From contig QPGO01000253.1 in NCBI GenBank assembly GCA_008632985.1, positions 62,001 to 93,895 on the forward strand: a DNA stretch of 31,895 nt. The letters run 5' to 3'. The notes below the pieces were generated by a model, which was not told where the DNA came from, did no database searches, and saw only the letters and a list, made by a program, of their open reading frames with translations. This document shows, in pieces, positions 1 through 31,895 of this stretch; positions within the stretch are counted from its first letter, which is position 1; each line of letters starts with the position of its first letter. The position numbers and the translations under genes are program-made. The stretch is from Psammoneis japonica (Eukaryota).

Positions 1-1514
1 GACAACTGCGAAACGATGCTGTTTCGATTGCTTTGGTGCAGGACAATTTGCCTGAATTGCAGATCACCCACCAGTGCTCCCTGGCAAACCCAGCATCAAT
101 CATTTGAAAACTTACAGAAAAAAGCAGTGGGTTCGTCGGGAGACTGCTGATCATCTTGGGTTCGGATGGGCGGGTGCTGATCACCTCAAACAGCTTCAAC
201 CATGCGATCAGCACGAAATGGAGTGCACAAAGTTGGTGACTCTTGATGTGACGGTGCCAAAATCTGATGGCATGACAGCGACGGAAAAGGTGACCGTTGA
301 CCCTTTTTTGGCCCCGGCACCTCTCAGTGCTTTGAGTTTCAACACGCCAACAAAGGGCACTCGCGCGTCCAGCGGAAATGGCACAGAACATGAAATCCTG
401 CGGCACGTGTTGAACATGAGCAAACGGGAAGCTTCATTGACGCCGCAAATGCAAATTGCTCTTGCAAAGGAGCAGCTTCTGAATGGTGTGGACCGTGACA
501 AAGAGAACAAACAACCAGAAGAGTTGGGGTGTGGGGACGAGATGAATTCGAAGGAGTCCAAGCCACCCAAAATCAATCTGTTCGATTTGAGTCCGAGTGA
601 AGTCAAACGACGGACGGGATTTGAAGACTTGAAGCACCTGTTGAGCTGCAGCATTGTTTGTTGTGAGGGCAACTTGGACAAGATGGTAGAGACTGCAACG
701 TGCTTGACATTCTTGGAGGAATTGATTCTCATGTACGAGCACACGCACGGTCGGACTCGCTCGCATTGGGAAGACATTGAAAAGGATTGGGGTGCCAACT
801 GCAGGACCTTGCAAAAGGTGATTGATCACCGTCTGCAAAAAGAACTGGAGTGTCGGGAGAGATGGCCGATGCATGCCTCCTGTGCCGAAGACGCCAAGTT
901 TCGTGATGAGAGATGGAATCAGCACTTCAGTCCGGTCGATGGACATCGTGTCATCATGCATGACGGAACGAATGTCCCGCTTCTTGATCCAAGCTCAGGC
1001 GATTTAAATCGAGCGCTTCACAATGTCCACCATGACATGTGTTGTGCAAAGGCTGGTGCAGCTGTGCAGCTGTGCAATTGGATTCTCGGCTTGCCGCTGG
1101 TGACGGGACACTGCGACGATGATCAGCTAATCAGATTCAGCAAGATGCTCGAATTGCAAAAGAACTTTGCAGACAACGACCCAGTTTCAGCTGGCGGCCA
1201 TGGCAAAAATGCAGCAATTGAAGAATTTCTGAACATGTTCGACAAAGGTCATCACATGCTTCTGGAAGCAAAAAGGCTGGGTCAACGTTGCTTGCAACCG
1301 ACAAAGTCGATTCTTTGATGGGCGGTGATGCAACCCTTGTTCAGCATCTGTGGCAGTGGTTGGATCAGGCAATGAGCGTGGCGTGAAGCGTTGCAAACTG
1401 TCTTGGATGCTCAAGCGAGGAATGCAAGACAAGCTGTGCAACGTTGATCGGCTTTGTGATGTTTGGGAGGCATGGAGCTTCCGCGTCAATTTCATGCACG
1501 AAGGCTTCCAGTGA
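1..1514 (+). pseudogene. Degenerate PIF/Harbinger/ISL2EU-like DDE transposase (DDE_Tnp_4-like), 5' end outside the window
   Basis: ORF 74-1318 has RVIMHDGTNVP, CCAKAG..VQLCNW..L..G..DD and FLNMFDKGH (canonical DKGY). After a frameshift near 1320 the C-terminus continues as SGNERGVKRCK..DVWEAWSFRVNFMH to TGA at 1512-1514. Tyr positions read as His/Cys; only about 6 TpA in 1.6 kb. Confidence 0.7.
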
Positions 1515-2896
1515 AGCACGACATTCTGGTGCATGCGATCAGATGCTGCGCTCCACTTGCAGTGTTTTGTGTGGGGAACGAACAACAACAAAGTCTCTAA
1601 CCCAGTTCTCTGTGTGACCCACCGCCTGCTCACTCTAAGAGGGCCCCGGTGTCAGCACCCACCGTACGGCAAACTGAGTCTGTTGTCACTGTCAGTGCCG
1701 TGGTGGTGCTGCACCGGTGCTCACCGTATGTCCGTCGCCATCAGATTTGTGACGTAGGCATTCAGTACAAAGAAGACGTAACATGTACGATAATACCAGG
1801 CCAACGTGCTTTTTACGGGGCCACCAGAAAATGGAAATACAATCGCTCCATGCTTCGTGCGTGCTTCATAACCTTACCGCCCGCCTGTGCGTGCTTCGTT
1901 GGTGCGTAGTCGTCGGTCGTACGATGTTTGTACGGTGTACGGTACCGTATTGTAGCAAGGATTTATAAGTCTGTCAGGATGTACAAGCTGCGTGGAACGC
2001 GTGTTGCCATGCGTGGTCAACAGCCTCTAAGTAATCTTGACGGTGCGAACTCCGCCGTTAAAGTATATAAATTTATTTTTATTTTATATATGTATTTGTA
2101 AAGCAAGAGACCGGACACGCGACGACTCCTCATTTTTTCAAGGGATCGCGCATCATTCATCAGAGCACACACACCATGATAATCGGAGCGCCGCTTATTA
2201 GACTATTGACGATCCTTTCAACAGTACCAACGCTATCTACTAGTCTTTACCTCCATATAGAAACAGATTATGTTGCTTTTTCGAAGGCAAGCGGCCAATT
2301 GTAAGGTGAAAAAAGGATTTTGTATTGACACCACGGTTCGAGACTCATTATCGCTCTCTGTCGCAATCGAATTATATTGTGCTTTTGTTTCGGCATCTCA
2401 CTCATTTTCTTTGACATGTTCGTCTTTATAACTCATATAGAGAAGCTGTTGAGCAACGTATCACCCCTACGGACGAACAATATCTCATACTTTCGTGTCG
2501 GTGTCGACACCATTTCTTTTCAACTCATGTTCTTCCTTATATCGGAACGGGGCTGTGGTGTGTCCTACGCTCTCTTTTGGACTGAACCAAGCAAGCTACA
2601 GTTGATAATTTCACGAATAATGACAATTATAATGTGCAATGGGTTGGATATTGACGTCCATGACCTTGCCGAGTGCCGGTTAGTAGTACTCCCTCGTTCG
2701 GGGACCGAAAACTGGGGTAAATCTTGGTGGCGTGGAGACTCTGCGATTGGAATGCGAGCGAGCGGGCTGGAATCTCGTGCAGTTTACTTCTGAAGGATGT
2801 GTACAATAAGGTATGTTTACATTTAAAGCAGTATTGATGCATCATGCATTTACAGTACCGGCATGACAAACAAACTAACAATATCATTCTCCATCT

Positions 2897-3148
2897 CTAT
2901 CTTTCCCATCTAGGTGGTGTCTTATTTTTGATTCTTGGCCAGTGATGAGGGGCAATGCATAAAATTTTAGTGCTTCTCTCGGGCTTCAAGTAATGGACAA
3001 TGCTTTGGACGAGACGCTTGCATCGTGTGTTTTGCGTCACGCGTATCCTTGCCAGCGGGCGACCCCAAAGTGGATCATTAGCGTGAATCAGCGCTTGTCG
3101 AAACACATGACAATTTGGCGAACTACAGCAGCATACATCATCACTCAT
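2897..3148 (-). pseudogene. Possible THAP-like N-terminal remnant of the P-element transposase
   Basis: MSDDVCCCSSPNC...PLW...ILCIAPHHWP resembles a THAP C2CH layout and lies near one end of the P-like element. No catalytic domain is recognisable downstream. Confidence 0.4.
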
Positions 3149-3260
3149 GGTTACAACAATCAATCAGTCATTGGGTTGATTGGCAATCGGCGGCAGATTT
3201 TAGAGCTACCATATTTGAAATTCCATTTCGTCTCTGTCTTCATCCACGTACGCCACCGCA

Positions 3261-3342
3261 CCATCACATTTCGTGCCGTCTGTTATCCCCCCTCCATCAC
3301 GTTTCGTGTGCCGTCTGTTTTCTCCCCTCCATCACGTTTCGT
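3261..3342. repeat. Short tandem repeat, 33-35 bp unit, about 2.4 copies, inside the P-like element
   Basis: CCATCAC(A/G)TTTCGT(GT)GCCGTCTGTT...CCCCT starts at 3261 and 3294, with a partial copy at 3329. Confidence 0.85.
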
Positions 3343-3543
3343 CTTCGAGGTATCTATGATATTTGTGCATGGTTATTTATAAATGATAAGTTCGTCCCGT
3401 CAGAAGCCCTACGTAGACTGCCGTAAAACGCAGTACAAATTTTAACGGTGTTCGTACCACGCATGGCAACAGGCTCGTGCGTAGATTTGTACCGGAGCTT
3501 GTACATCCTGACAGACTTATAAATCCTTGATTGTAGTTACTGA

Positions 3544-4268
3544 GACTCTGTCCAAACACTATCATAGGTATGATCATACCCACGTCACGCAGGCTTTTAT
3601 GATGACGTCATAGGTCATACCCGTAATGTTCTGTCCAAACACATTCGTACGTATGATAGTACCTCATAGACATTAATCGAATGATTCAAACTTACAGTAC
3701 GCGAAGCAACACCAGATACAACATGAATGAACCAGCGATAACAACACCACGAGAGCGACATGACCATGACGACGAAAACGCAACCATAAGGCGACAATAA
3801 GCCATACAAAGGACACCTATTGATAAAAAAATCATGCTTATGTATAACTTATGGCTAAATCAGTTGTCCGTAAGAGAGTATGACATGAATTTATTTTAAG
3901 AAACTGTTTGGCAAAATGGTTGTGTCAGAAGAGTCCAGAATGGCACACAAAGCCCCCCAAAGACAACAAGCGGCTCATGCATGGTCTTATGTGGTTGCCT
4001 CATATAATATACAGCCACATGCGCTTTGGACGTATCAAAAAACGATGCATATCGGTTGTTTTCGTGTTTCGTCGGTGGGGTATGATGTTGGGGTATGATG
4101 TTTCCGAGGAAGTCTGTTCTCGCGAGAACAAACATCCTCATGAAAGTTGGTATGGCCTAAAATTACGTCATGCATAGGGCTAATAACCACTAATTTTTTC
4201 GAAGAGGCTCATTTTAGGCGCTATGACGTCAGGTATGATCATACGTATGATAGTGTTTGGACAGGGTC
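3544..4268. mobile_element. Tourist-like (PIF/Harbinger) MITE, 725 bp
   Basis: About 37-bp TIR GAC(T/C)CTGTCCAAACACTATCATA(G/C)GTATGATCATACC at 3544-3580 and 4232-4268; 3-bp TSD TGA (3541-3543 and 4269-4271); internal partial TIR copy at 3631-3642; no credible ORF. Confidence 0.85.
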
Positions 4269-4596
4269 TGAAGTAGTAGGGCCTACATATTATGAATATA
4301 TACTGCTGTCAATCTCCAGTCGTGGAAATGACAGTTTTGAGGATAAAGTTTAATATTTAGGATTTTACAGATTGATTACATCAGTGCTTTATGATATAAT
4401 TGAAAGATTGGACATTTCATTGAAATTGAAGGTTAAATAAAAACTGCACAGATAACGGGGTTCACGCCAATTTTTTTTGCAAAAGTGTCTAATTTACGAC
4501 GACAAGTACTGCCAAGCACAGGTGTCGAACTTCTGTGGATCTTAGTTCTTAGTTGAGTGCATGCGTTGTGTGTCTTTTCTCAGTCCACCATGATCA

Positions 4597-17717: not shown

Positions 17718-20126
17718 CTACGGCTCAACTCCCTTCAATGAATTGAGAACATCCAATCCGTCCGTGTCGAAAAGCTTTGAAGCGTTGCTCTTGCTAACGG
17801 TTTCAAGCCATCCCTTTTTCTGTTTCTTGCTCGGATTTTCTTCCGGTTCTGATTCCATCACCTTTACTTGATCGTCTTCGAGAACACCAGGGTTCGCACC
17901 AGCTGTGTGGTCACAAGGGTATTGAACGATGAGACGAACACAGCCAAACCTTTCCCCAACAAGCTTGGGCACTACTTCCTCCCAGCGCCGCTTCAGACCT
18001 TGCTTAGACGTTATCTTAGTTGCGAGCTTCGGATCCGTATCTCGATTTTGATGGTATAAAAGGCTGGAGTGACCGATCTCAAAGCTTCCATTAGATTGAC
18101 ATTCTTTCTGTATTTGGCTTGTGATATGACCGCACGTAGTCTATGTACGAATCATTCCACATTATGAACATGAGATCTGGTCCAATTGCCGTGTCTGGGT
18201 AGCAGAATGGTGGCACTTGGCCCTCAAAAGTACAAGTTGTTGCAGCTTCGATCCAATGAATTGTCGCACTAGCGTCCTTGCATGACACAGCAAGCATTCC
18301 GTAGGCCGACCTATGGGGCACCGTATGCTTTTTCAAGACATCCCCTTTGTCGCCAAGCTGTTCTTGGAGTATTTCTGGAAGTCTCTTTTGAATCGCTGGC
18401 AGCATTACCTTCTCGAATAATCCTTCACCTAAGCCACCATCCTCTTGCGCTTTCATGTTGTCGATGGCCGTTGCTGGAGTGAGAAAAAATTGATGCCAGC
18501 TTGAATCACAATTGGCTCGTAGAGAACCGCCATGTTACTTTCGCAACTAAGAGCAGCTAAGCCAACCTCAACAAGCTCTGCGTGGTGCTTAGAAATGTAC
18601 ACCGGCTGTCCTCCAACGGCAAACTTGAAAGCGGCATTCTCCAGCACACTGGCAACCTGATGCCCTCCCTTCTCGACTGCGTGCTTAAAGGCACTGTACG
18701 CTGTGCCCTCAGGCGGGTCGAATGATTCTCGTCTGTCCCCACCCATGCCATCGAGATTCTTAATCGTTTCCCCGGTGTACTTGTCAATGTAGCGATCTAA
18801 AGCCTCTATCAGCGCGCACCCCTGAGCCGAGAATGATCCTCTCGTCCCGGTGTAGTTGTCTCTTTTCTCTCGTACCAAGTATAGCTCCAAAAAGGATGCG
18901 GACCACCGTGGGCAACCTCGAAGCCACTTGGAGATGTGACCAATCACGCTAGCAATTGAAGCTTTCCCTATTTCTTCAGGATCATCCAAGTCCAAGTCAA
19001 TGAAAGTGAGAAGATATTCTTGGACAGCGTTTTGGCATCGTGGATGTTGAAAGCCTTGAAGACAGTCGTGCTGTTCTCCGATAGCGTATGTGGCCGTTTT
19101 GCCATGACCGAATACGATGCTTCCCTGATCTCATCAATCGACATTCCTGTACCGGCTGCCAGTGGAAAGCCTGTATCTGAATCCAGAGTTACCGTCAGCA
19201 TGTTCGTCAATGCCTTGAGCACAGCAGAAAAGGCATGTCGCTTTTCACCCCCGTTCGAACTAAGGAAAAAATCATTTAGTTTTTTCAGAAGCTCTTGTGC
19301 CTCGTCTACCACCATCGTAGTCCAGGGCAGCACTTTTTCTCCGTTACGATTGTCAAGGGCAACTGTGACACTGACATCGTTTGGCCTCGTAAAGGCGTGA
19401 ATAACACATTTACCACAGACAAGACTAAAAAGGTCTTTTTCAATGCCTCCTTCGGGAACAGTTGCATCAAGAGCCAGTCGTACGGCGTGAGTTCTTGTTT
19501 CTTTTTGATTCAGCTGCTTGTTAATCGCATCGAAAACGGCAATTCGTCCAGCACACAATCTTGATGTGTCGATCCATGTTTCGCTGGTTCTCGTCGCTTC
19601 GGTTTCGTTGTCGCTGCAGTTGTTACTTTTCATCATCTTGGGAGTCACCTCCATCCAATTCACCCAGAAAATTATGTCCATGAAACTCCTGAAACGAACC
19701 CATCAGTCTCGATAGATCCTTCGACCCAGGGTCATTCGTTGTCTTAGCCACAAAGTACAAGCCAAAGTTGTGGCTGAGGCATTCGTAGACGGCGCGTGTT
19801 TTCCCCGCTCCTGAAGTGCCATACAATCCACTACAAATGTCCTTTGTTCCGTCAATGAACTGTGAACCTCTGTGCATTTGTGCGTGTCATTCTGGAGATC
19901 ATGCAACAACAGTGAAGGAATGGGAAGCTTCGTGCAGGAAGGATCCTGAGGAATGGTGCTGTGCTGCATTGGAGATCAGCCAATGGACCCTTCCCTGTGG
20001 ATGCATAAATGATTCCAAGCAGAAAGATTCATGTGGATGCTCATTGAAGTGCTCATCTACAAGATCAGAGCACAGTTGAGCAACAGTGCGCGCATCGGCA
20101 TCGGTTTCTGCATTCGCAGTTGCCAT
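17718..20126 (-). pseudogene. Crinkler/RHS-like P-loop NTPase + restriction-endonuclease-fold gene, disrupted
   Basis: Walker A GTSGAGKT, Walker B MVVDEAQ, AGTG, then PDTAIGPDL and SQAK (nuclease-like). Two in-frame TGA at about 19887-19901 and frameshifts near 19650, 18990, 18460 and 18110. Likely start MATANAE at 20126. Confidence 0.68.
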
Positions 20127-20428
20127 TGTTGTGGTTTTTGGAGAGAGAGCTGTTGTTGTTTTTGTTGTCGCTAAGAACAACCGAACGCCCACACCCACAC
20201 CTTCCATCTCCACGATTGCGACGATGCAGGTTCACCAGGCACAGCAAAAGTCTGTTGGCAAGCAACGCTTGCAAAATCGTGCAGTTGTGCTCGAGACATC
20301 ATGACATCTGGTCTACGTTGCCGGTCCGGATCTCTGCGTCCGTGCTCTTGCGCTGTCTGCGGCAGTTTTCTGCAGGCTTTTGTTCAACCTTATTTTCAAT
20401 TTGCCACCACATGCCAGACAATGTGACG

Positions 20429-21180
20429 ATGAGCAATTTGCGGGCAAGAGTTGTGCTGAGTGCCTTTGTGAGCTCAATCGTTTTGTTGTTGCAACAGAAG
20501 GCCTTTGTTGGTGGAGAAACCGACGAATGCAAGCCCCAAAATGCGGCAGTCATGACCCTTGTGACAACGAGCGATTGCGTCAAGGGCGCAAAAGTGTTGG
20601 CTCACTCTTTGGACAAAGTGAGCGCCTCTGGCGACCGAGTTTTGCTTTGCGCATTTCCCGAAGACGACCCTCATTTAGATCTCACACAAGAGCGTGTGCT
20701 CGACCTCCGTGATGCCCGCTGGACCAAGACTCGGAGACTCGCGTCAAATGACGGAACGCTTTCCATGTGCAAAGCATCAAAGGAGCAGCAGCGCACATTT
20801 GAACAGAGTCCAAAAGAGCTGGCTGGGTCAGCAAGATGCTGGGGAATGAGCAGCAAATTTGCAGTCTGGATGCCAGCTGAATGTGATGTCATCGTCTGTG
20901 TTGACGTGGACAGCTTGGTGCTTGACAATTTTGACTTTGTGTGCGATGTGATGAATGGGGCGAGTGGCGCCACCCTTTTGGCTCAGGGAACGCCATGTTG
21001 CTGGGAGGATCCACCTGACTGTGGCGCATTTTGTGGTGCTTTCATGGTTGTCAAACCCATGCCCCACATTCACAAATGCTCTCATGACCTTTCAGCTGAA
21101 AATTTCTTGGCCAAGGGGAACTGCCGCTGCTGAATCAAGTTTGCAAATCATGGCAGCCACTCCCTCGACACACACCGGCG
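20429..21180 (+). pseudogene. Truncated, hypermutated duplicate of the GT8 glycosyltransferase
   Basis: Aligns to 21682-22437. Every Tyr is replaced by Cys/His, YIDAD becomes CVDVD, there is a 1-nt deletion near 21115, and it is cut at the duplication junction. Confidence 0.95.
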
Positions 21181-21349
21181 GCTGTGCTGCATTGGAGATC
21201 AGCCAACAGACCCTTCCCCGTGGATGCATTGATGATTCCAAGCAGAAAGATTCATGTGGATGCTCTTTGAAGTGCTCATCTACGAGATCAGAGCACAGTT
21301 GAGCAACAGTGCGCGCATCGGTGTCGGTTTCTGTATTCGTAGTTGCCAT
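21181..21349 (-). pseudogene. Second, truncated copy of the Crinkler-like gene 5' end
   Basis: MATTNTETDTDARTVAQLCSDLVDEHFKEHPHESFCLES matches 19958-20126. Confidence 0.8.
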
Positions 21350-21681
21350 TGTTGCAGTTTTTGGAGAGAGAACTGTTGTTGTTTTTGTTGTTGTCGACAA
21401 GAATAACCGAGTGACGCCCACACCACACCTTCCGTCTCCACGATTTCAGATTGCGACGATGCAGGTTCACCAGGCGCAGCATTAGTCTGTTGGCGAGCAA
21501 CGCTTGCAAAATAATCGTACAGTTGTGTTCGAGATATGATAACTACGTCGCCGGTCCGGATCTCTGCGTGCTCTATGCTCTATCGCGCTTACATCGCGCT
21601 GTCTGCTGTCTGCGGCAGTTTTCCGCAGGCTTTTTTCTTTTTCATTTTCAATTTGCCACCATTCCAGACAAAAATGCGACG

Positions 21682-22728
21682 ATGAGCAATTTGCGGGTAA
21701 GAGTTGTGCTGAGTGCCTTTATAAGCTTAATCGTTTTGCTGTCATTGCAACAGAAGGCCTTTGTTGGTGGAGAAACCGACGAATACAAGCCCCAAAATAC
21801 GGCAGTCGTGACCCTTGTAACAACGAGCGACTACGTCAAGGGTGCAAAAGTGTTGGCTTACTCTTTAGACAAAGTGAACGCCACTGGTGACCGAGTTTTG
21901 CTTTACGTGCTTCCCGAAGACGACCCTCGTTCAGATCTTACACAAGAACATATACTCGACCTCCGTGATGCCGGCTGGACCAAGACTCGGAGACTCACGT
22001 CAAAAGACGGAACGCTTTCCGTTTGCAAAGTATCAGAGGAGCAACAGCAGATAATCGAACAGAATCCAAATGAACTAGCTGGGTTGGCAAGATACTGGGG
22101 AACGTGCAGCAAATTTGCGGTCTGGACGCTAACTGAATATGATGTCGTCGTCTATATTGACGCGGACAGCTTGGTGCTTAATAATTTTGACTTTGTGTAC
22201 GATATGATGAATGAGATGAGCGGTGCCACCCTTTTGGCTCAGGGAACGCCAGGTTGCTGGGAAGATCCGCCTGACTGTGACACATTTTATGGTGCTTTCA
22301 TGGTTATCAAACCCATGTCCCACATTCACAAATACCTTCATGACCTTTCAGCTGAAAATTTCTTGGCCGAGGGCGAACTACCTTTGCTGAATCAAGTTTA
22401 CAAATCATGGCAGCCACTCCCCCGATACACATTGGTGGCTCAAACCGAAACCGCACGACCACGTCCGAATGATGACCCAAACCAAAAAGTGGATTGGTCG
22501 CGTGTCGTAGTCTACGACTTTTCCGGCATGCCTCAAACCAAACCGTGGGTAACTTACGCGTTGCAGAAGGAACAGGGAAACAAGTATGCGCACGGTTATT
22601 TTGGAAGTTTGCCCGCCGGATCTCCCAACGTTGATATTTACATGGAACCGCAGTGGATATGGAATGAATACTACGATGCTATCCTACAAGAAAAGAGTGC
22701 CAGAGGCAGCACGGAACCCGACCTGTGA
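21682..22728 (+). CDS. GT8-family (glycogenin-like) glycosyltransferase
   Basis: N-terminal signal/anchor, AVVTLVTTSDYVKGAKVLAYSL, SKFAVWTLTEYDVVVYIDADSLVL (DxD), LLNQVY and KPW; intronless ORF. Confidence 0.9.
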   Translation: MSNLRVRVVLSAFISLIVLLSLQQKAFVGGETDEYKPQNTAVVTLVTTSDYVKGAKVLAYSLDKVNATGDRVLLYVLPEDDPRSDLTQEHILDLRDAGWTKTRRLTSKDGTLSVCKVSEEQQQIIEQNPNELAGLARYWGTCSKFAVWTLTEYDVVVYIDADSLVLNNFDFVYDMMNEMSGATLLAQGTPGCWEDPPDCDTFYGAFMVIKPMSHIHKYLHDLSAENFLAEGELPLLNQVYKSWQPLPRYTLVAQTETARPRPNDDPNQKVDWSRVVVYDFSGMPQTKPWVTYALQKEQGNKYAHGYFGSLPAGSPNVDIYMEPQWIWNEYYDAILQEKSARGSTEPDL

Positions 22729-22848
22729 CAAGGAATATCAATCTATACTAGGTACAATGAGTTACGTGTTTGTTGTATGGCCCGGCGACAGGTGTACCAC
22801 GGTGAGGAGATAAGCGCCTTGCCAGGGTGTAAATACAACACGGATTCT

Positions 22849-23628
22849 TCAATCCTCGTGCTCATGCTGCGGCTCAACGTACGTTCCGCACATCCAATGC
22901 AACATAGCAGGGGGTTCCATTATCCGCTTCAGCGGCCATCCTCGTACTTCGGCCAAGATGGGATAGACGTACTCTAAGAAGTAATAAATGTGTCCAACAA
23001 TAACCCCAATCACATCGATAGTCACGTTATTTCCAAGCAAGATGGAAAAGGTAAGCATGACCCATGGTAAGTAGGGTGCATTGAAGGTGAAGAAACCCAG
23101 AAAGCTCATTCGCACGTGTTCATTACGCCGTCCCCAGACGTAAACCATCATGAACGTCAGAGCCGACCCTAGGAAATGCACTCCAGTGTAAGAAGCCACA
23201 AGAGCCATGATTGTTACTCCAAACAAGAGCATAAGGACGAAATTAGCTGTTCTGCCTCGAAAGTCACCCTCCTCCAACAATCGGCAATAGCGAACCTATC
23301 AGGGGGGAATCAAGTCAATCGTGAGTCTCCAAACATAACACGCTTTCGCATCAGCGTCTGTGTGTGCACGACTTACCAAAAAGTACATATGGAAAAGAAA
23401 GTCCATCGAAAAGACCCCAAAGAAGAGATAGGACGTTATCAATCGCCAAACCTGACCTTCCGAGAATATCAGTCTCCAGTTGAAATAGAGCGAAAAGGGA
23501 CTGACAATGTCGATTGCGCACAAGGTTGTTGTGAGAAATGCCCCCGTAAAGTACAGTCGAGACACGGGCGGAATTTCCTTGTACCATGACATGAAATCCA
23601 CTCCACCGGCAGCACCTCCGAGATCCAT
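22849..23628 (-). CDS. DER1: Derlin (Der1-like ERAD component, derlin-2/3 type)
   Basis: IPPVSRLY, QVWRLITSYLFFG, FLFHMYFL|VRYCRLLEEGDFRGR, VYVWGRRN, APYLPW and GHIYYFL; intron 23296-23376. Confidence 0.95.
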
Positions 23629-26709: not shown

Positions 26710-26942
26710 TCTTTACTTTGCCAAAGAGTTGTTGATTACTTTTTGTGGTTGCTTTCGCGCTGTCGTATGATGTGAATGCTTCGAAGTCATCGCGCACCTC
26801 AATCACGACTTGGGACGAATGCACGTTTCGCGAGTCGTGAATGCTGAATGCTGGCAGATACAGCAGCAGGGAAGCGAGTCGTCGAAGCTCGCGTGTACGC
26901 GGAGCTCCGAGTGCCTTCCTGTCAACTGTCTTAACGTGCTGA

Positions 26943-27759
26943 CTGGATGCGTCCGGGCGATCCAGGAAACTTCGAAGACTTCGAAAGATTCCATATTCCA
27001 TGACATTTCTGTAAATTATTCTACGTGCAGAGCTCGTAGGTTGTTGGTACTTAATAAATAAGGGGCAATAGATAAAAGTTCGAACAAATATGTTGTGTGT
27101 TCGAAGCTTTCGAATATTGTTCGAAGTGTTCGAATTTTTGTCGAAAACATATTGCCCTCCAAAGATTTTGATTTATGTCACCTATTGTTCGAACTTTTCA
27201 TATTGCCCTTTTGGTCACTTCGAACTTATTCGAACAAAGTTCGAACTTATTCGAACAAGTTCGAAGTGTTCGAACAAGTTGAATAGTAGATCTCGTACTG
27301 CCTGTACGCGTTACTTGTCGCTTCGATTGTACGTACCGTATCTCATCATCTCATTGATAGAAGAGAGCACAAAACAACAACGTGAGATATCATACCGTAT
27401 CGCGCGTGTACCTACTAGTCTACCAGCAGTACACTACATCATTCGGCTACGGGATGTCATCGTGACATCATCATTCGTCTCCCCTGCCGTTACTGTACTA
27501 TTTTTATTTAAGAAAAAAACTTCGAAAGTGTTCGAAGTACTTCGAAGTGTTCGAAGTATTCGAACACTTCGAACAACTTCGAACACTTCGAACTTTCTTT
27601 GGGGCAGTATAAAGGGCAATAGAGAAAGAAATTTTACAATGTTCGAAGCTTTTGTCCATCCTACACGAGGTCCACGTAGAGATATATAAATAGGAATTAG
27701 GAATCTCTTAAATATTTTTCGAAACTTCGAAGTTTCCTGGATCGCCCCGCTCCATCCAG
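26943..27759. mobile_element. Foldback/MITE-like inverted-repeat element with TTCGAA arrays
   Basis: Perfect 23-bp inverted repeat GGGCGATCCAGGAAACTTCGAAG (26955-26977 and 27725-27747), extending imperfectly outward. About 25 TTCGAA copies lie in two arms around a roughly 200-bp core. No TSD found. Confidence 0.6.
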
Positions 27760-27819
27760 ACCAACACCTCGAGCAGAATACAAGTGGAGAGCATCTACTG
27801 ACGAGCAGTGACGAGTGCT

Positions 27820-30800
27820 CAGTCAAAAGTCTTTCACAAAACTGCCAGTGACCAAATTATGAGCCACCTGGACTGAATCTGCTGAGTGCAACAAACAGAG
27901 GTTCATCCTCCGCACACACTTGTGCTGGAGACCAGCACAAGTTTCAGGGTCAACCACTTTCACAACAGTCATCCAAGTGCTGCTGAACCAATGCATGGTT
28001 GGTCCAACATCCATGCAATGCCTGTGATCCTCAAAGCAGATTCCGGCCGATGGAAGTGCAGACACATTGGAGAATTTGGGTCGGTCGACAGATGGCCCAT
28101 TGCTCTCCCTCTCATTCACAGATTCCAGCAACCAAAAAAGAAACTGCAAATGAGAAAGCTTGCACAATTGGCACAAGTTCAGAGCAAAGCCCCTGCACAT
28201 CTTGACCGAGCCACAACACACACAACAAACAAAGGAAGCAATGCTCCCAAAAGGCCACCACCCTTGGACCTTCAACTGGTTGTTCTGAAAGAGTTCTCGA
28301 GTCAAAGGCTTCACAAGAAAATTGGTGAGCTGATCAGCCAATTCCATCTTGAATGCATCAAACTTGTCACAATGTGACCAGAGCCAGCACCACTTGATGA
28401 GAAAATGCTTGGCGCGATTCGTGATGCGGTGGTTGGCAGCCAGGCAGCAACCACCTTGATTGTCTTCAAACACACAAGCACAAACAGAAGTTTTGAGATC
28501 TTGGGGAATGTCCAAGGTGGAGACAATTTCAAGGAGCATGTTCTTCAAAGGTGGGAGTGTTCAAAGTGCACAGGAGGCGGCTTGGTGCTCAGCTTCAAAA
28601 GTGTGGAGCATGCAATGGCCAACTGGAGCTGCAATTTCCACACCAAAAGACACTCATTGAGAGCAATGAAGCATCTGGTGCAAGACCTGACCAAATTTAG
28701 ATCAGAGCCCTTTTTTCAGCAATGGAGACCAGCAAAAACAGCATCGTCAACCCAGCACAAGTCAAGATCCAAGTGACCGGTTGGAGACAGTGGCATCCCC
28801 TGATCACGTGTCCTCTCAAGGTGTCAGACAAGAGTCTTGATGGCAGCAGCATGCAACTGCTTTGGGTTGGAATTGAAGCGCGCAACCTGGCTGATGGAAA
28901 AGGAGGCATCAGGGCGGGTGTCAGCAGACAAGTGCAAGAGCATCCCAACGATGGAGGGGCAGCTCCAATCCTCCTGCATGGGGTCCTGTTGACATCACTG
29001 CCAAGTGCTTGAGATGCTGCAGGGAGCAAGTTTGGTTTGCAGTCTGTCACACTGGCAGCAGCCAAAATCTTGTCAAGAGTCAACCCCTTTTGAGACAACT
29101 TGACAGCACCATCATCTCGCCTTTTGAACTTGATGCCCAGAAACTTGGCAAAACTGCCCTCTTTTGTCTGCTCAAATCCTTTCTTGCACAGTTGAGACAT
29201 CACTCAGTTGATGGTGGACTCCTGTGCTGCACTGACACCACAATTGTTGACACGCAGGCAGACCATGCAATCTTTGTGGAGCAGAAGGCATTGGCTGCAC
29301 TTGCTTTGGATGAAACCCAAATCCAAGAAGGCCTGCAGGCAATGCTCATGCCACAACTTTGGAGCTGAAGAAAGTCCACAGTGGCTCTTGACATGCTTGA
29401 GACAGGTCTTGGGTCCTTTTGCAGAGTGGAAACCATGTGCTGGGAGATGGGTCCAAACTGGCTCTTCCTTGGGAAGCACCACCTGAATGAATGCAGACTG
29501 GAAATCAGCAGATGCAGTGTGCCATCCGAGGATTAGACTCAACACCAGAAATTCCAAAACTGCACTCCAAGCAACAACATGAGCACGGGCATCAAATGGG
29601 CTCCCTTCCTGCAAATTGCTGCAACAGCAGTGCCAAGCCTTGTGTTTCTTGATCTCACCCAATGGCAATCTGCCGGGAAGCATCTTGGCTCAAGCATTGG
29701 AGACTTGTGCTTTGACCCACATTCCCTGATGGACAAGAGCAGCAATCTCAAACTGTTGGCTGTCTTCAACCATTTCTCACAATCAGGAGGGCACATGGCC
29801 TCATCCCACAACAGCTCATCAGCATCCTTGATCTTGCACACTGACACCTTGTGCGCGGCAGGTGCAGTCATGGATGTGTTGCAACAACCGCGATCAAACT
29901 TGCAGGCACAATGAAAATCAACAAAGTGAGACAAGCATCCATGTCCCTGAGAACCATCACACCCAAGGCAATCAGGTGTCAGGTGCAGCACAATTCTGGG
30001 TGGAATGCCAAACTGGAGCAGGAGAGCTGCAGTGCCTCATTGTTGGCAAGGATGCACAAGTCTCTCAGGATGCACAAGCTCTGGTGCAAGACCATGCAAG
30101 AGGCAGCCTGTTGCCATGTGTGGTTTGGCCACCATCAAATTTTGCACTGGATTTTACCAAGGCTTGCGTCAGGCTTCTGATGGGATGATGAACTCATCAT
30201 TTAAAATTGACAACAAGATGGCAACAACTTGTGCTTCCAAAATGTTAAAAAAAAAATGAACAGAAGAGAGACAGTCATTGAACTCAAAAATGAAACCTGC
30301 CACCGACGGAATGAGGCTCAGTGCAACACTTGTCCATTGCAATCCAATGACCATTTGTCAGCCACCGTGTGCAGCAATGATGTTTGTTGATGAACAACAA
30401 TTGGTCCCCAGTGCAATGTTGAGCATCTTCAATCTGTGTTGTGCGCCAGAACTTGCTTTTGCTTTTGACTCACTCATGTTGAAAAGTGAGAACATTTGTG
30501 TGCTTGAACAGCAGAGTTTGCAACATCAAAATTGCTCATGGACTCATCACAGTGCACGTGGCAATGTGCGTTCCATGCAGCTTGCACATCCTGATGCATC
30601 TTTGTTTGTTGGACTGTGTGGGTTTGCACACATGTGCGCACTGCATGTGGAAAACATGCACAGAATTGCTGCTGAGTGAATCGACGTGCGGTGGATTTTC
30701 ACAGGTGCACAATCCACCAGGTCTGCAGGGAAGACAAACAGATGTGGCAATGGCAATCTTTTGTGCTGCAAAGTCATTGTCAACAAAAAATGCATGAAAA

Positions 30801-31000
30801 TTGTGTGGACCAGCACAAAAATTGACCGCTTTGCCAAATGGCTGTGTCTTGTTGTCTCCATGACTGAAATGAAAAGAACATGATCATGATTGACAATCAT
30901 GATCACATTGTGACATTTGTCCATCTCAAAGAGAAGGATGTCCACACCCTTCTTGGGCTTCCTCTGGATGTTCCTGACAGAAAATGAAGGCAAATGGCAA
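27820..31000 (-). mobile_element. Heavily degenerate Ty1/Copia LTR retrotransposon (RT-RNaseH, PPT, probable 3' LTR)
   Basis: ADFQSAFIQ, KSHCGLSSAPKLW (canonical KSLYGLxxAP), LRVNN (YVDD), FLGIKF, LSQKGL, VFEDNQG, RAKHFLIKW and NFLVKPL. Purine tract GAGAGGGAGAG at about 28103-28113 on the minus strand. Outer boundaries are approximate. Confidence 0.85.
30047..30604 (+). mobile_element. 558-bp P-family element nested in Copia, related to 1956-3529, TpA-erased
   Basis: Left end CAAGGATGCACAAGTCTCTCAGGATGCACAAGCT and about 150 bp align to the reverse complement of 3380-3529. The right end ..GCGTTCCATGCAGCTTGCACATCCTGA-TGCATCTTTG aligns to the reverse complement of 1956-2012 with a small deletion. 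Flanks ATTGTTGG and TTTGTTGG form an 8-bp TSD with 1 mismatch. Confidence 0.85.
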
Positions 31001-31895
31001 GAATTCAAACAATGACTCCTCACTGCTGTCTAAATGGCAGATGAGTCTCCGCTCAGAGACCGTCACAGGAGCCGAAAGACGTGCAAGTCGGCACAATCGG
31101 GCCACTGTTGTCATTCTTGTGAGCCTTGTGGCTCGAAAGCAAACTGCATCGCACGTGAACGCGCAGAACTAAAGCACACAAAACTGTGCACGGCAAACTA
31201 AACAGCGTGCGATGCTTCGCGCGCACCCAAATCCTGTTCAAATCCTGTCACTCCCCAGTTTGCTTGAGGAGCCACAGAAACAGATTCGACTTCAGATGGA
31301 ATGAAGTTCCAGAACATGAGGGGGCGGAGAAGGTCCCAGATTTGGGAGTGACCCCAATGCTTGCTGAGAATGTCAGCAGGGTTGCGGGAGCCTTCGATGA
31401 AGTGGAACTCAAGGCAACCAGAGGCAATTGCCTCACGCACATGGTGGAACGACAGTGCGGTGTGTCGCTTGTGTAACTTGGAGTGCGGGATGGTGGCACT
31501 GTCTACAACCGACTTGTTGTCACCGAACATGTGACCAATGTTGCGGATCGGGACGCCAAGGTGGCGCAGGGTGATGCGCAGGTCGATGATCTGCTCAACA
31601 CAAGTCCTTGCGGCAACAAATTCAGACCCGCAGGTCGCAGTCTCCACGGTGGCTTGTTTCTTGGAGAACCAATCAGCCGGGAATTTGTTGAGGAAGTGGA
31701 GCATTCCCATGACAGAGCGTCCGGTGAGCATGCAATGGTGCAAGTTTGCATCGACGCAGTGGGTGGCAGTGACGAACTTGCCAAGGGGCGGTGGAGCGTC
31801 CTTCGGGATCATCTCTTCTGCTTCACCATGCACGGAATGCATCCATTCATAGGCCGGAGCAGGGAGATCCGAACAGTCGGGCTCTTCCGTACGAA
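31000..31895 (-). mobile_element. Second Copia (diatom CoDi-like): RNase H, PPT and start of the 3' LTR; continues beyond the window
   Basis: HCVDANLHHCMLTGRSV..DWFSKKQATVETATCGSEFVAA..FGDNKSVV..KRH.ALSFH.VREAIA..NPADILSK. On the minus strand, GGGGAG is followed directly by TGACA at 31250. The far LTR end was not determined. Confidence 0.9.

Follow-up and report, generated by a model that had tools for sequence, protein, structure and literature searches.

Erased zones and neighbouring features

The window, by which we mean the whole stretch of 31,895 nucleotides analysed here, contains three discrete zones that are nearly devoid of the dinucleotide TpA (Table 1). In these zones the observed/expected ratio (rho) is 0.05-0.07 for TpA and 1.57-1.75 for CpA+TpG, and TpA-free runs extend over 574-840 nt; across 14.5 kb of normal sequence, by comparison, the longest distance without a TpA is 124 nt. 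The zone borders are sharp, to within about 100 nt. Mobile DNA is represented among the targets by Copia sequences, a DDE transposase and a terminal-inverted-repeat (TIR) element, while in the glycosyltransferase duplicate a host gene has been hit. The named relatives of this one gene are diatoms, and on its evidence the nuclear genome is most likely that of a diatom; it is not that of Bigelowiella natans, the alga discussed below.

Table 1. Positions of the erased zones and associated features in the window
Feature	Coordinates	Strand	Remarks
Erased zone 1	1..1597		5 TpA vs 97 expected; rho TpA 0.05, rho CpG 0.80
Degraded PIF/Harbinger-type DDE transposase ORF	56-1315	+	In zone 1
Copy 1, same TIR family as copy 2	1956..3529		1574 nt; TpA-intact
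Second TpA-intact MITE	3543..4269		38-nt termini, 95% complementary; 14 nt from copy 1
Erased zone 2	19833..21280		Spans copy A (19958-21183); extends ~100-200 nt into copy B
Copy B of glycosyltransferase-8 duplicate	21181..22440	+	ORF 21415-22725; TpA-normal; Pfam Glyco_transf_8
MITE	26943..27759		TpA-intact, CpG-rich; 35-nt termini; many TTCGAA repeats; abuts zone 3
Erased zone 3	27859..31895		12 TpA vs 254 expected; rho TpA 0.05; continues past window end
Ty1/Copia reverse transcriptase remnant	28700..29689	-	Two collinear RVT_2 pieces in one frame
Left target-site duplication of copy 2	30039..30046		ATTGTTGG, read directly
Copy 2, non-autonomous TIR element	30047..30604		558 nt; TpA and CpG erased
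Second Copia pol, C-terminal part	31201..31893	-	Very abundant family (read depth)

The transposase ORF of zone 1 has no Pfam match of its own. It has 493 homologues, and the DDE_Tnp_4 domain (PF13359) was found in five of the eight that were scanned; in four long homologues this domain adjoins or overlaps the stretch matched by the ORF. Similarly, of the two tandem copies of the glycosyltransferase gene, Pfam recognises copy B only and not the erased copy A. Copy B has cover from a contig of run X2. Spliced forms occur in this run as well, so that it behaves as RNA-derived; among the runs listed for the window none is entered as RNA. X2 has no contig over 19900-21233 or 28571-30571, an absence of cover that is uninformative.

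Zone 3 (rho CpA+TpG 1.75, rho CpG 0.38) is derived from Ty1/Copia retrotransposons. The two RVT_2 pieces of its reverse transcriptase remnant are separated by an in-frame stop and score 26.2 bits (profile positions 54-156) and 14.6 bits (189-242), both under the 31.6-bit cut-off, and a search for homologues of this piece among longer proteins found none. The second Copia pol ORF has 2997 homologues, with PF07727 in 9 of the 120 listed. Zone 3 yielded neither an integrase (rve) match by Pfam nor the direct repeats of an LTR pair, the latter even in a purine/pyrimidine coding that hides transitions; thus, the Copia elements are present as fragments. The description of copy 2 as lying inside Copia, given in the initial annotation, is borne out for its left flank only; the right flank carries no recognisable Copia domain, and Pfam at E values up to 5 detects nothing credible in the ORFs to the right of the element. 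A possible empty site for the MITE that abuts zone 3, in the form of an X1 contig joint skipping 26922-27773, was set aside as too weak, the shorter side of the joint having 23 letters.

Two members of one TIR family in opposite states

The boundaries assigned to copy 2 in the initial annotation are exact, and its central contrast between a TpA-erased and a TpA-intact insertion is confirmed. Copy 2 has an 8-nt deletion in one terminus, and its right target-site duplication, TTTGTTGG at 30605-30612, matches the left one at 7 of 8 positions. Base composition predicts 43.2 TpA for copy 2, but it retains 3 (rho 0.07; Poisson P 2.5e-15), and the deficit remains significant when the rho of 0.57 in the genic background of the window is taken as reference (P 5.7e-8). 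Conversely, CpA and TpG together number 136 (rho 1.98), and CpG is reduced to 7 (rho 0.26). The erased state is unbroken across both junctions of the element, with rho TpA of 0.03 and 0.025 in the two flanks. These junctions are bridged by a Logan contig of DNA run X1 (record 7) spanning 29215-30975 with 6 other letters and about single-copy depth; the run may be from the same sample as that from which the window was assembled.

Copy 1 lies in the opposite orientation. Its inverted termini of 37 nt match at 36 positions, its 7-nt target duplication (ATTGTAG at 1949-1955 and 3530-3536) is perfect, and its dinucleotide composition is close to normal (rho TpA 0.82, rho CpG 1.16). It has short ORFs only, none of them a transposase, and Pfam finds no match in the two longest, so the assignment to the P family made at the outset is unconfirmed. 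Elements of the P superfamily combine terminal inverted repeats with a target duplication of 7-8 nt; the 37-nt termini and the duplications of the two copies (7-nt perfect and 7/8) fit this superfamily, and equally others with similar duplications. There is no autonomous relative of the element within the window. A scan of metagenomes with the core of the TIR gave a single match, L001, which we discarded as chance since the outer terminus is missing from it and BLAST finds no similarity between it and the window.

BLAST aligns the two copies, in opposite orientation, over two segments (117/160 identical, E 9e-23; 73/101 identical, E 8e-11). This homology is confined to the termini, with no alignment of the interiors, indicating that the copies are two members of one non-autonomous family and not, as first proposed, the same element in two places. 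The terminal alignment comprises 295 ungapped positions. Within it, the 25 TpA of copy 1 correspond in copy 2 to 10 CpA, 9 TpG, 2 retained TpA and 4 other dinucleotides, and the 20 CpG to 11 TpG, 4 CpA, 2 retained CpG and 3 others; no TpA or CpG is present in copy 2 that is absent from copy 1. The four changes originally quoted as examples are all contained in this alignment. Outside TpA and CpG the copies differ at 29 of 181 positions (16%), compared with about 45% inside these dinucleotides, so TpA loss runs far above other divergence. Accordingly, gBGC or neutral decay was rejected as an explanation, given that the rate at TpA is far above that at other sites and that CpG is lost simultaneously.

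The perfect target duplication and near-identical termini of copy 1, which lies outside any erased zone, mark it as young, while the terminal deletion of copy 2 and its divergence at other sites mark it as old. The two insertions therefore do not constitute the natural experiment for which they had been taken, as locus or chromatin state is inseparable from age in this comparison.

Direction, strand symmetry and substrate of the changes

The direction of change is from TA to CA or TG, as four independent comparisons prove. First, one site across the four termini of the TIR family reads TA, TA, CA and TG, which excludes a family consensus of CA/TG; in copy 2 itself, a single ancestral TA was resolved as CA in one terminus and as TG in the other. 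Second, at the 65 columns where the glycosyltransferase copies differ, 44 outgroup proteins favour the residue of copy B at 53 and that of copy A at 7, and at all eight columns where tyrosine is commonest in the outgroups copy A has cysteine. Third, the DDE ORF keeps none of seven tyrosine-majority columns of its homologues, having five histidines, a tryptophan and a leucine instead. Fourth, the Copia pol ORF keeps one of nine such columns, with replacement by cysteine or histidine, as against 137 of 157 other majority columns. The reverse polarity, with the CA/TG-rich copies as the ancestral form and a gain of TpA in the intact ones through C>T changes at CpA, would resemble fungal RIP, which is described as turning CpA into TpA and acting on duplicated DNA. 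Against it stand the outgroup support for the TpA-bearing copy, the replacement of conserved tyrosines in three unrelated erased ORFs, the recognition by Pfam of copy B only, and the normal TpA level of the intact copies, which show no excess over the rest of the window. We regard it as having a negligible probability.

The glycosyltransferase duplicate gives the most detailed view of the changes. The 42 TpA of copy B correspond in copy A to 25 TpG, 13 CpA, one CpG and one ApA, with two kept. Thus 40 of 42 TpA have changed, whereas among the 1094 dinucleotides other than TpA and CpG the number is 178 (odds ratio 103, P 6e-28), and the difference between the copies at positions outside TpA and CpG is 5.3%. 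A>G changes number 28 at TpA and 15 outside it, with few at ApA, CpA and GpA. The TpG and CpA outcomes fall into 19 runs where 18.1 are expected, and this runs test gives no sign of strand-coordinated tracts in the duplicate. The base 5' of the changed-strand T shows no significant preference (Fisher P 0.24), and the base 3' of the changed-strand A a weak trend to C or T only.

The same comparison of flanking bases shows a sparing of YTAR.

Since the CA and TG outcomes follow one another in random order, both DNA strands have been struck site by site, and this excludes an origin in edited RNA or cDNA. An ADAR-like A-to-I hyperediting of double-stranded transcripts, followed by reverse transcription and reinsertion, would be in keeping with the retrotransposon origin of zone 3, and ADARs are known to prefer a 5' U. 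Yet cDNA from one strand would carry only A>G or only T>C changes; the erasure extends equally to a TIR DNA transposon, a DDE gene and a tandem duplicate including its non-coding junction; and 15 A>G changes lie outside TpA as against the 28 within it. We accordingly give this scenario practically no weight. The proposal that the mutator acts in place on both strands of chromosomal DNA is thus borne out by the junction-spanning erasure, the CA and TG termini and the interleaved outcomes, and the elements affected without an RNA or cDNA stage include, besides the TIR element and the tandem duplicate already pointed out, a DDE transposase gene. It is further supported by a mutation-accumulation experiment in another alga, discussed below, where resident DNA was reported to mutate de novo at TpA only. 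These results together show, besides the direction of change, that the process is specific to TpA, symmetric between strands, confined to zones and active on elements that have no RNA stage.

CpG has also been erased, which the initial annotation had missed. Zone 3 and copy 2 have been strongly depleted of it and zone 2 in part, while zone 1 shows almost no loss. Since CpG persists in zone 1 (rho 0.80) although TpA is nearly gone there (rho 0.05), the two processes can be separated.

A trivial explanation would be a sequencing or base-calling artefact, whereby modified bases in silenced DNA would cause TpA (and CpG) to be called as CA or TG in the assembly although TA is really still present. 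The best read run shares sample and study with its two companions and could itself have supplied the reads of the assembly, and its library type is not on record, which leaves some room for such an artefact. Nevertheless, Logan's separate assembly of X1 reproduces 29215-30975 with the 6 other letters noted above, every site is cleanly CA or TG, and the erased copies bear indels, an in-frame stop and 5-16% divergence at other sites. Moreover, public proteins that stem from other records have likewise lost tyrosine to cysteine or histidine at tyrosine-majority columns, wholly in P0046 and P0188 and partially in P0210 (mostly to phenylalanine) and P0198. Finally, the same signature is reported to arise de novo in Illumina-sequenced lines of the chlorarachniophyte Bigelowiella natans (Mettrop et al., bioRxiv 10.64898/2026.01.13.699255). 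Together these points make an artefact very improbable.

Proposed history, and comparison with known systems

We consider it probable that the TIR element was an old insertion into the Copia cluster and that the whole block was subsequently hypermutated in place at TpA. In this history, a small non-autonomous transposon (copy 2) would have inserted long ago into a cluster of Ty1/Copia fragments, after which the whole block, as resident double-stranded chromosomal DNA, would have been mutated from TpA to TpG or CpA, with each event affecting a single site on a single strand, until TpA was nearly gone. The same process would have struck the DDE transposase gene of zone 1 and one copy of the glycosyltransferase tandem in zone 2, while a second, slower process, presumably deamination of methylated cytosine, would have stripped CpG in the same zones. 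Copy 1 would have been spared by its youth and its position outside all targeted zones.

As to the chemistry, deamination of adenine in 5'-TA-3' on either strand, with the resulting inosine read as G, has in our estimate an even chance of being correct. Alternatively, an enzyme of the TET/JBP kind could oxidise the T of TpA to 5-hydroxymethyl- or 5-formyluracil, which would pair with G and yield T>C on either strand. In the DNA of dinoflagellates, 5-hydroxymethyluracil occurs preferentially at TpA and TpC, and mispairing with G is a property of 5-formyluracil; furthermore, T>C and A>G lead to identical end states (TA to CA being TG on the other strand), so the counts fit both chemistries. However, TpC is spared, with [T>C]C occurring once in the gene duplicate, and the authors of the B. 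natans study favour an ADAT2-like deaminase, which in the preprint is likewise a proposal. We therefore view the thymine lesion as unlikely, if clearly less so than an artefact.

Targeting probably follows a silenced chromatin state and not sequence homology, because zone 2 and the repeat unit have different limits and TpA is retained in copy B. The tandem duplicate, with an erased copy beside its intact twin, thus argues for the targeting of domains over that of homologous sequences. Targeting directed at the elements themselves is also conceivable, since the borders of zones 1 and 3 roughly coincide with the ends of transposon-derived sequence. The separability of TpA loss from CpG loss offers, in addition, a relative clock for silencing marks. 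The erased genes also carry a warning for annotation: they lack tyrosine codons, have TGA as their only stop, present spurious long ORFs in all frames and are missed by Pfam.

A broader reading is possible, although we give it somewhat less than even credence. Diatoms and chlorarachniophytes might share an inherited, chromatin-directed enzyme system that edits duplex DNA at TpA, sparing YTAR and favouring RTAY, and thereby permanently destroys silenced domains; its targets would comprise retrotransposons, DNA transposons nested in them and silenced duplicates of host genes, and it might represent a homology-independent counterpart of fungal RIP. If true, this would amount to a widespread and hitherto overlooked arm of genome defence within the SAR supergroup and a natural source of an A-to-G editor of duplex DNA. 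Some diatoms are genetically transformable, and in these, candidate deaminases or thymine oxygenases would be open to knock-out.

The changes described here share with the footprints of ADAR and APOBEC a concentration of deaminase-type transitions in mobile elements. There, however, the changes are coordinated by strand and depend on an RNA or cDNA stage, whereas here the two strands are interleaved and elements that pass through no such stage are affected. The conversion of CpG to TpG or CpA in copy 2 (15 of 20 aligned sites) and in zone 3 (rho CpG 0.38) resembles the CpG decay of methylated transposons, yet such decay cannot yield the observed loss of TpA. With fungal RIP there is a broader likeness, as both systems ruin transposons and gene duplicates in place through dinucleotide-specific transitions at the DNA level, leaving sharp compositional domains. 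The direction is nonetheless opposite, RIP leading from CpA to TpA and the present process from TpA to CpA/TpG; further, RIP strikes both copies of a repeat, while here one tandem copy is erased next to a TpA-normal one and the erased zone is displaced relative to the repeat unit.

The closest counterpart is the TpA-targeted hypermutation of integrated viral DNA in B. natans (Mettrop et al., bioRxiv 10.64898/2026.01.13.699255), the only account of TpA-specific hypermutation found in a search of the literature outside subscription journals; the same search brought up none for diatoms. According to that preprint, 230 of 231 mutations that arose in two silent viral inserts during mutation accumulation were A>G or T>C, all of them at TpA, at a rate about 1000-fold above background; in the genome, 124 clusters were reported that are poor in TpA, rich in CpA+TpG and enriched for DDE and RT domains. 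The thresholds given there are a rho TpA of at most 0.43 and a rho CpA+TpG of at least 1.52 in three consecutive 1-kb windows; all three of our zones lie within these rho limits, and zone 3 alone is long enough for three windows.

As far as the preprint describes them, the two cases agree in that TpA is changed almost exclusively to TpG or CpA, on both strands of resident chromosomal DNA and in discrete regions, and in a TpA-poor, CpA+TpG-rich footprint that includes DDE-endonuclease and reverse-transcriptase domains. Since the signature matches that of B. natans, we take the two to be the same kind of process, and the phenomenon itself is not new to science: the window provides a real, new instance of one very recently described. 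The evidence differs in nature, consisting here of end states in sequence and there of real-time mutation data. The degree also differs, being near saturation here (rho TpA 0.05-0.07) as opposed to 0.45 in the NCLDV region of B. natans, and CpG is co-depleted in two of our three zones, while the term "CpG" is absent from the preprint's main text. The targets reported for B. natans are giant-virus and virophage inserts; those in the window are an LTR retrotransposon, two DNA transposons and a host duplicate, so the saturated signature falls here on transposons of three kinds as well as on a duplicated host gene. Finally, B. natans is a rhizarian, whereas the present genome is most likely that of a stramenopile; if this placement holds, the process extends beyond one species and beyond viral DNA to at least two lineages of SAR.

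Three zones of TpA loss and their intact neighbors

A sliding dinucleotide count over the whole window delimits three zones that are nearly devoid of TpA and high in CpA and TpG, the remainder being ordinary (see table). Taking rho as the dinucleotide count relative to the base-composition expectation, TpA stands at 0.05-0.07 in the zones versus 0.57-0.64 in the genic background, and CpA+TpG at 1.57-1.75 versus 1.12-1.16. The longest TpA-free runs inside the zones measure 574-840 nt; over 14.5 kb of sequence outside them that counts as normal, TpA spacing has a mean of 25 nt and a maximum of 124 nt. CpG is lost unevenly, with a rho of 0.38 in zone 3 (locally 0.07-0.35), a milder loss in zone 2 (0.66), and hardly any depletion in zone 1 (0.80). 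Because TGA is the sole possible stop codon in sequence lacking TpA, open frames of 120-420 codons overlap one another on the two strands of the zones, with 0-2 tyrosines apiece. Gene finders would over-call in such regions, and Pfam mostly fails there.

Copy 1 of the family discussed below and the two MITEs, all of them short TIR elements whose termini are near-perfect, stand intact within 40-350 nt of the erased zones. The first MITE lies only 14 nt from copy 1, thus placing two young TIR elements side by side. The second is CpG-rich (rho 1.61) and TpA-normal, and some 40-100 nt separate its end from the zone 3 border; the Copia pol frame next to it stops at 27826, with no LTR found beyond.

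Coordinates of erased zones, duplicated genes, and TIR elements in the window
Feature	Coordinates	Description
Erased zone 1	1-1597	near-absent TpA, CpA+TpG-rich
Erased zone 2	19833-21280	near-absent TpA, CpA+TpG-rich
Erased zone 3	27859-31895	near-absent TpA, CpA+TpG-rich
TIR element, copy 1	1956-3529	1574 nt
TIR element, copy 2	30047-30604	558 nt
MITE	3543-4269	38-nt termini, 95% complementary; internal 34-nt direct repeat at 3547 and 3630
MITE	26943-27759	817 nt; 35-nt termini; dense TTCGAA-containing repeats
Glycosyltransferase-8 tandem duplicate, copy A	19958-21183	in zone 2
Glycosyltransferase-8 tandem duplicate, copy B	21181-22440

The two TIR-family copies and their Copia surroundings

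The initial annotation described one P-family element as TpA-intact in copy 1 and erased in copy 2. Its coordinates for both are exact, and all four terminus changes that it gave as examples are present in the alignment. Rather than the same element, the copies are separate members of a single non-autonomous TIR family with only their ends in common (117/160 and 73/101 identical, in opposite orientation). Copy 1 contains only short ORFs, the two longest of which have no Pfam match. The P-family label is tentative; the 7-8-nt target duplication of the family is compatible with P elements, though not peculiar to them. The target sites of the two insertions are alike, ATTGTAG (1949-1955) and ATTGTTGG (30039-30046), which hints at a target-site preference.

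Over the 295 ungapped positions of the terminal comparison, the erasure of TpA in copy 2 relative to copy 1 is confirmed: 19 of the 25 TpA of copy 1 have become CpA (10) or TpG (9), with 2 remaining TpA and 4 showing other states. CpG, a point missed by the initial annotation, is erased as thoroughly, its 20 sites in copy 1 corresponding to 11 TpG, 4 CpA, 2 CpG, and 3 others; no TpA or CpG at these positions is private to copy 2. The proposed natural experiment is real as a contrast in TpA but is confounded by age. Copy 1 looks young, with 37-nt termini agreeing at 36/37 positions and a perfect 7-nt target duplication, whereas copy 2 looks old, with an 8-nt deletion in one terminus, a target duplication agreeing at 7/8, and a 16% difference from copy 1 at positions outside TpA and CpG.

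The placement of copy 2 inside Copia holds on its left, where a reverse transcriptase remnant is found (RVT_2 in two collinear pieces, each under the Pfam cut-off), but on its right nothing is recognizable before a second Copia pol (C-terminal part, 31201-31893), and no LTR pair was found around it in zone 3. Copy 2 thus lies within a nest of Copia fragments. The Copia family at the right end of the window is extremely abundant, as 30572-31895 has a summed contig depth of ~1e5 versus ~58 in unique sequence and attracts most of the 3848 contigs of the DNA run X1 that match the window at a likeness of at least 80%. In the small run X3 (0.16 million letters), depth is seen in the last two bins only (30572-31895), with pieces listed at 31066-31895.

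Direction, strands, and specificity of the change

As judged by four independent lines of sequence comparison, namely the TIR termini, the glycosyltransferase outgroups, the DDE ORF, and Copia pol, TA is the ancestral state. The core site of the four TIR-family termini reads TA and TA in copy 1, and CA and TG in copy 2; since both termini of one element are alike at insertion, copy 2 changed thereafter, once per strand. Of the 65 columns that differ within the glycosyltransferase duplicate, 44 outgroup proteins favor copy B, which is TpA-normal, at 53 and the erased copy A at 7, and all eight columns with tyrosine commonest in the outgroups have cysteine in copy A. Tyrosine is absent from the 361 residues of copy A, compared with 22 in the 437 of copy B. 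The zone 1 ORF (56-1315) has 493 homologs, with DDE_Tnp_4 in 5 of the 8 scanned, and at the seven tyrosine-majority columns it carries His (five times), Trp, and Leu. The second Copia pol keeps 1 of 9 tyrosine-majority columns and 137 of 157 other majority columns.

The 42 TpA of copy B correspond in copy A to 25 TpG, 13 CpA, 1 CpG, 1 ApA, and 2 TpA, a change at 40/42 sites versus 178/1094 for dinucleotides other than TpA and CpG (odds ratio 103, P = 6e-28). Copy A has TpG or CpA at 20 of the 64 CpG of copy B, and the copies differ by 5.3% at positions belonging to neither dinucleotide. The CpA and TpG outcomes form 19 runs versus 18.1 expected, an interleaving as by chance that is incompatible with a single-strand or processive event and consistent with numerous hits to duplex DNA, each independent and on either strand. 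An edited-RNA/cDNA route is ruled out by the same interleaving. Zone 2 and the repeat unit are out of register, the zone beginning ~125 nt before copy A and extending 100-200 nt into copy B; beyond it copy B keeps normal TpA, and hence homology between the copies is not the target. The best database match of the glycosyltransferase is 63% identical; the two matches with a full organism name are from the diatoms Seminavis robusta and Fragilaria crotonensis, and a third name begins "Lepto." Among the differences listed between X1 contigs and the window, all three inside zone 2 (20260, 20623, and 21125) are CpG versus TpG/CpA, suggesting that CpG sites there are still mutating or differ between alleles.

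The earlier proposal that the mutator acts in place on chromosomal DNA is thus supported, in that a DNA transposon and a gene duplicate are both hit, on either strand. The transition process is TpA-specific, strand-symmetric, confined to the zones, and acts on resident DNA; it outpaces CpG decay, from which it can be told apart. Mechanistically, adenine would be deaminated in 5'-TA-3', on either strand, within silenced chromatin. We give adenine deamination as the chemistry about an even chance, the main rival being thymine oxidation at TpA. In a post hoc comparison, the 24 TpA surviving in the zones are YTAR in 12/24 versus 166/954 in the background (P = 3e-4) and RTAY in 2/24 versus 299/954, a hint which suggests that flanking bases matter. 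This bias may represent a flanking preference of the mutator or newly created TpA.

Read support and the Bigelowiella natans precedent

The reads derive from one sample in three runs that is possibly the assembly's own source, and therefore do not constitute independent biology. A Logan contig of X1 covers 29215-30975, including both junctions of copy 2, with 6 other letters and a depth of 68 versus ~58 in unique sequence. Run X2 has a spliced joint (23293/23375, CT..AC ends) that is missing from X1 and corresponds to an 81-nt minus-strand GT..AG intron (23294-23374); thus, X2 is probably RNA-derived despite its flag "DNA?". One X2 contig covers copy B at 21661-22747. The reading of TpA loss as a sequencing artifact is weakened by the indels, in-frame stop, and ordinary divergence that the erased copies also hold, and by the same tyrosine loss in database proteins of other records. 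At tyrosine-majority columns, P0046 and P0188 carry nothing but Cys, His, and Arg or Gln; the change is partial in P0198, and in P0210 the residue is mostly Phe, along with His and Cys. All four are homologs of the DDE or Copia ORFs with little or no Tyr, and their replacements at such columns show that further erased copies exist in public records.

In mutation-accumulation lines of B. natans, two integrated viral regions account for 231 of the 302 single-nucleotide mutations of the nuclear genome; 230 of the 231 are A>G or T>C, every one of them at TpA, with a rate of ~6e-7 per site per generation (bioRxiv 10.64898/2026.01.13.699255). The same preprint reports 124 TpA-poor, CpA+TpG-rich clusters in that genome, with DDE and RT domains enriched among TpA-poor genes, and its authors propose an ADAT2-like adenine deaminase as a hypothesis; the words "diatom" and "CpG" are absent from its main text. 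In literature searches on diatoms or phytoplankton, on this dinucleotide signature, and on genome defense by A>G or T>C changes specific to TpA, it was the only report of such a process found, with none in diatoms. The present window does not belong to the annotated genome of B. natans. All three zones lie within the preprint's rho thresholds, and zone 3 alone has the length demanded by its rule of three consecutive 1-kb windows. The TpA erasure described here is a fresh instance, in a new lineage and on new targets, of a kind whose first description dates from 2026.
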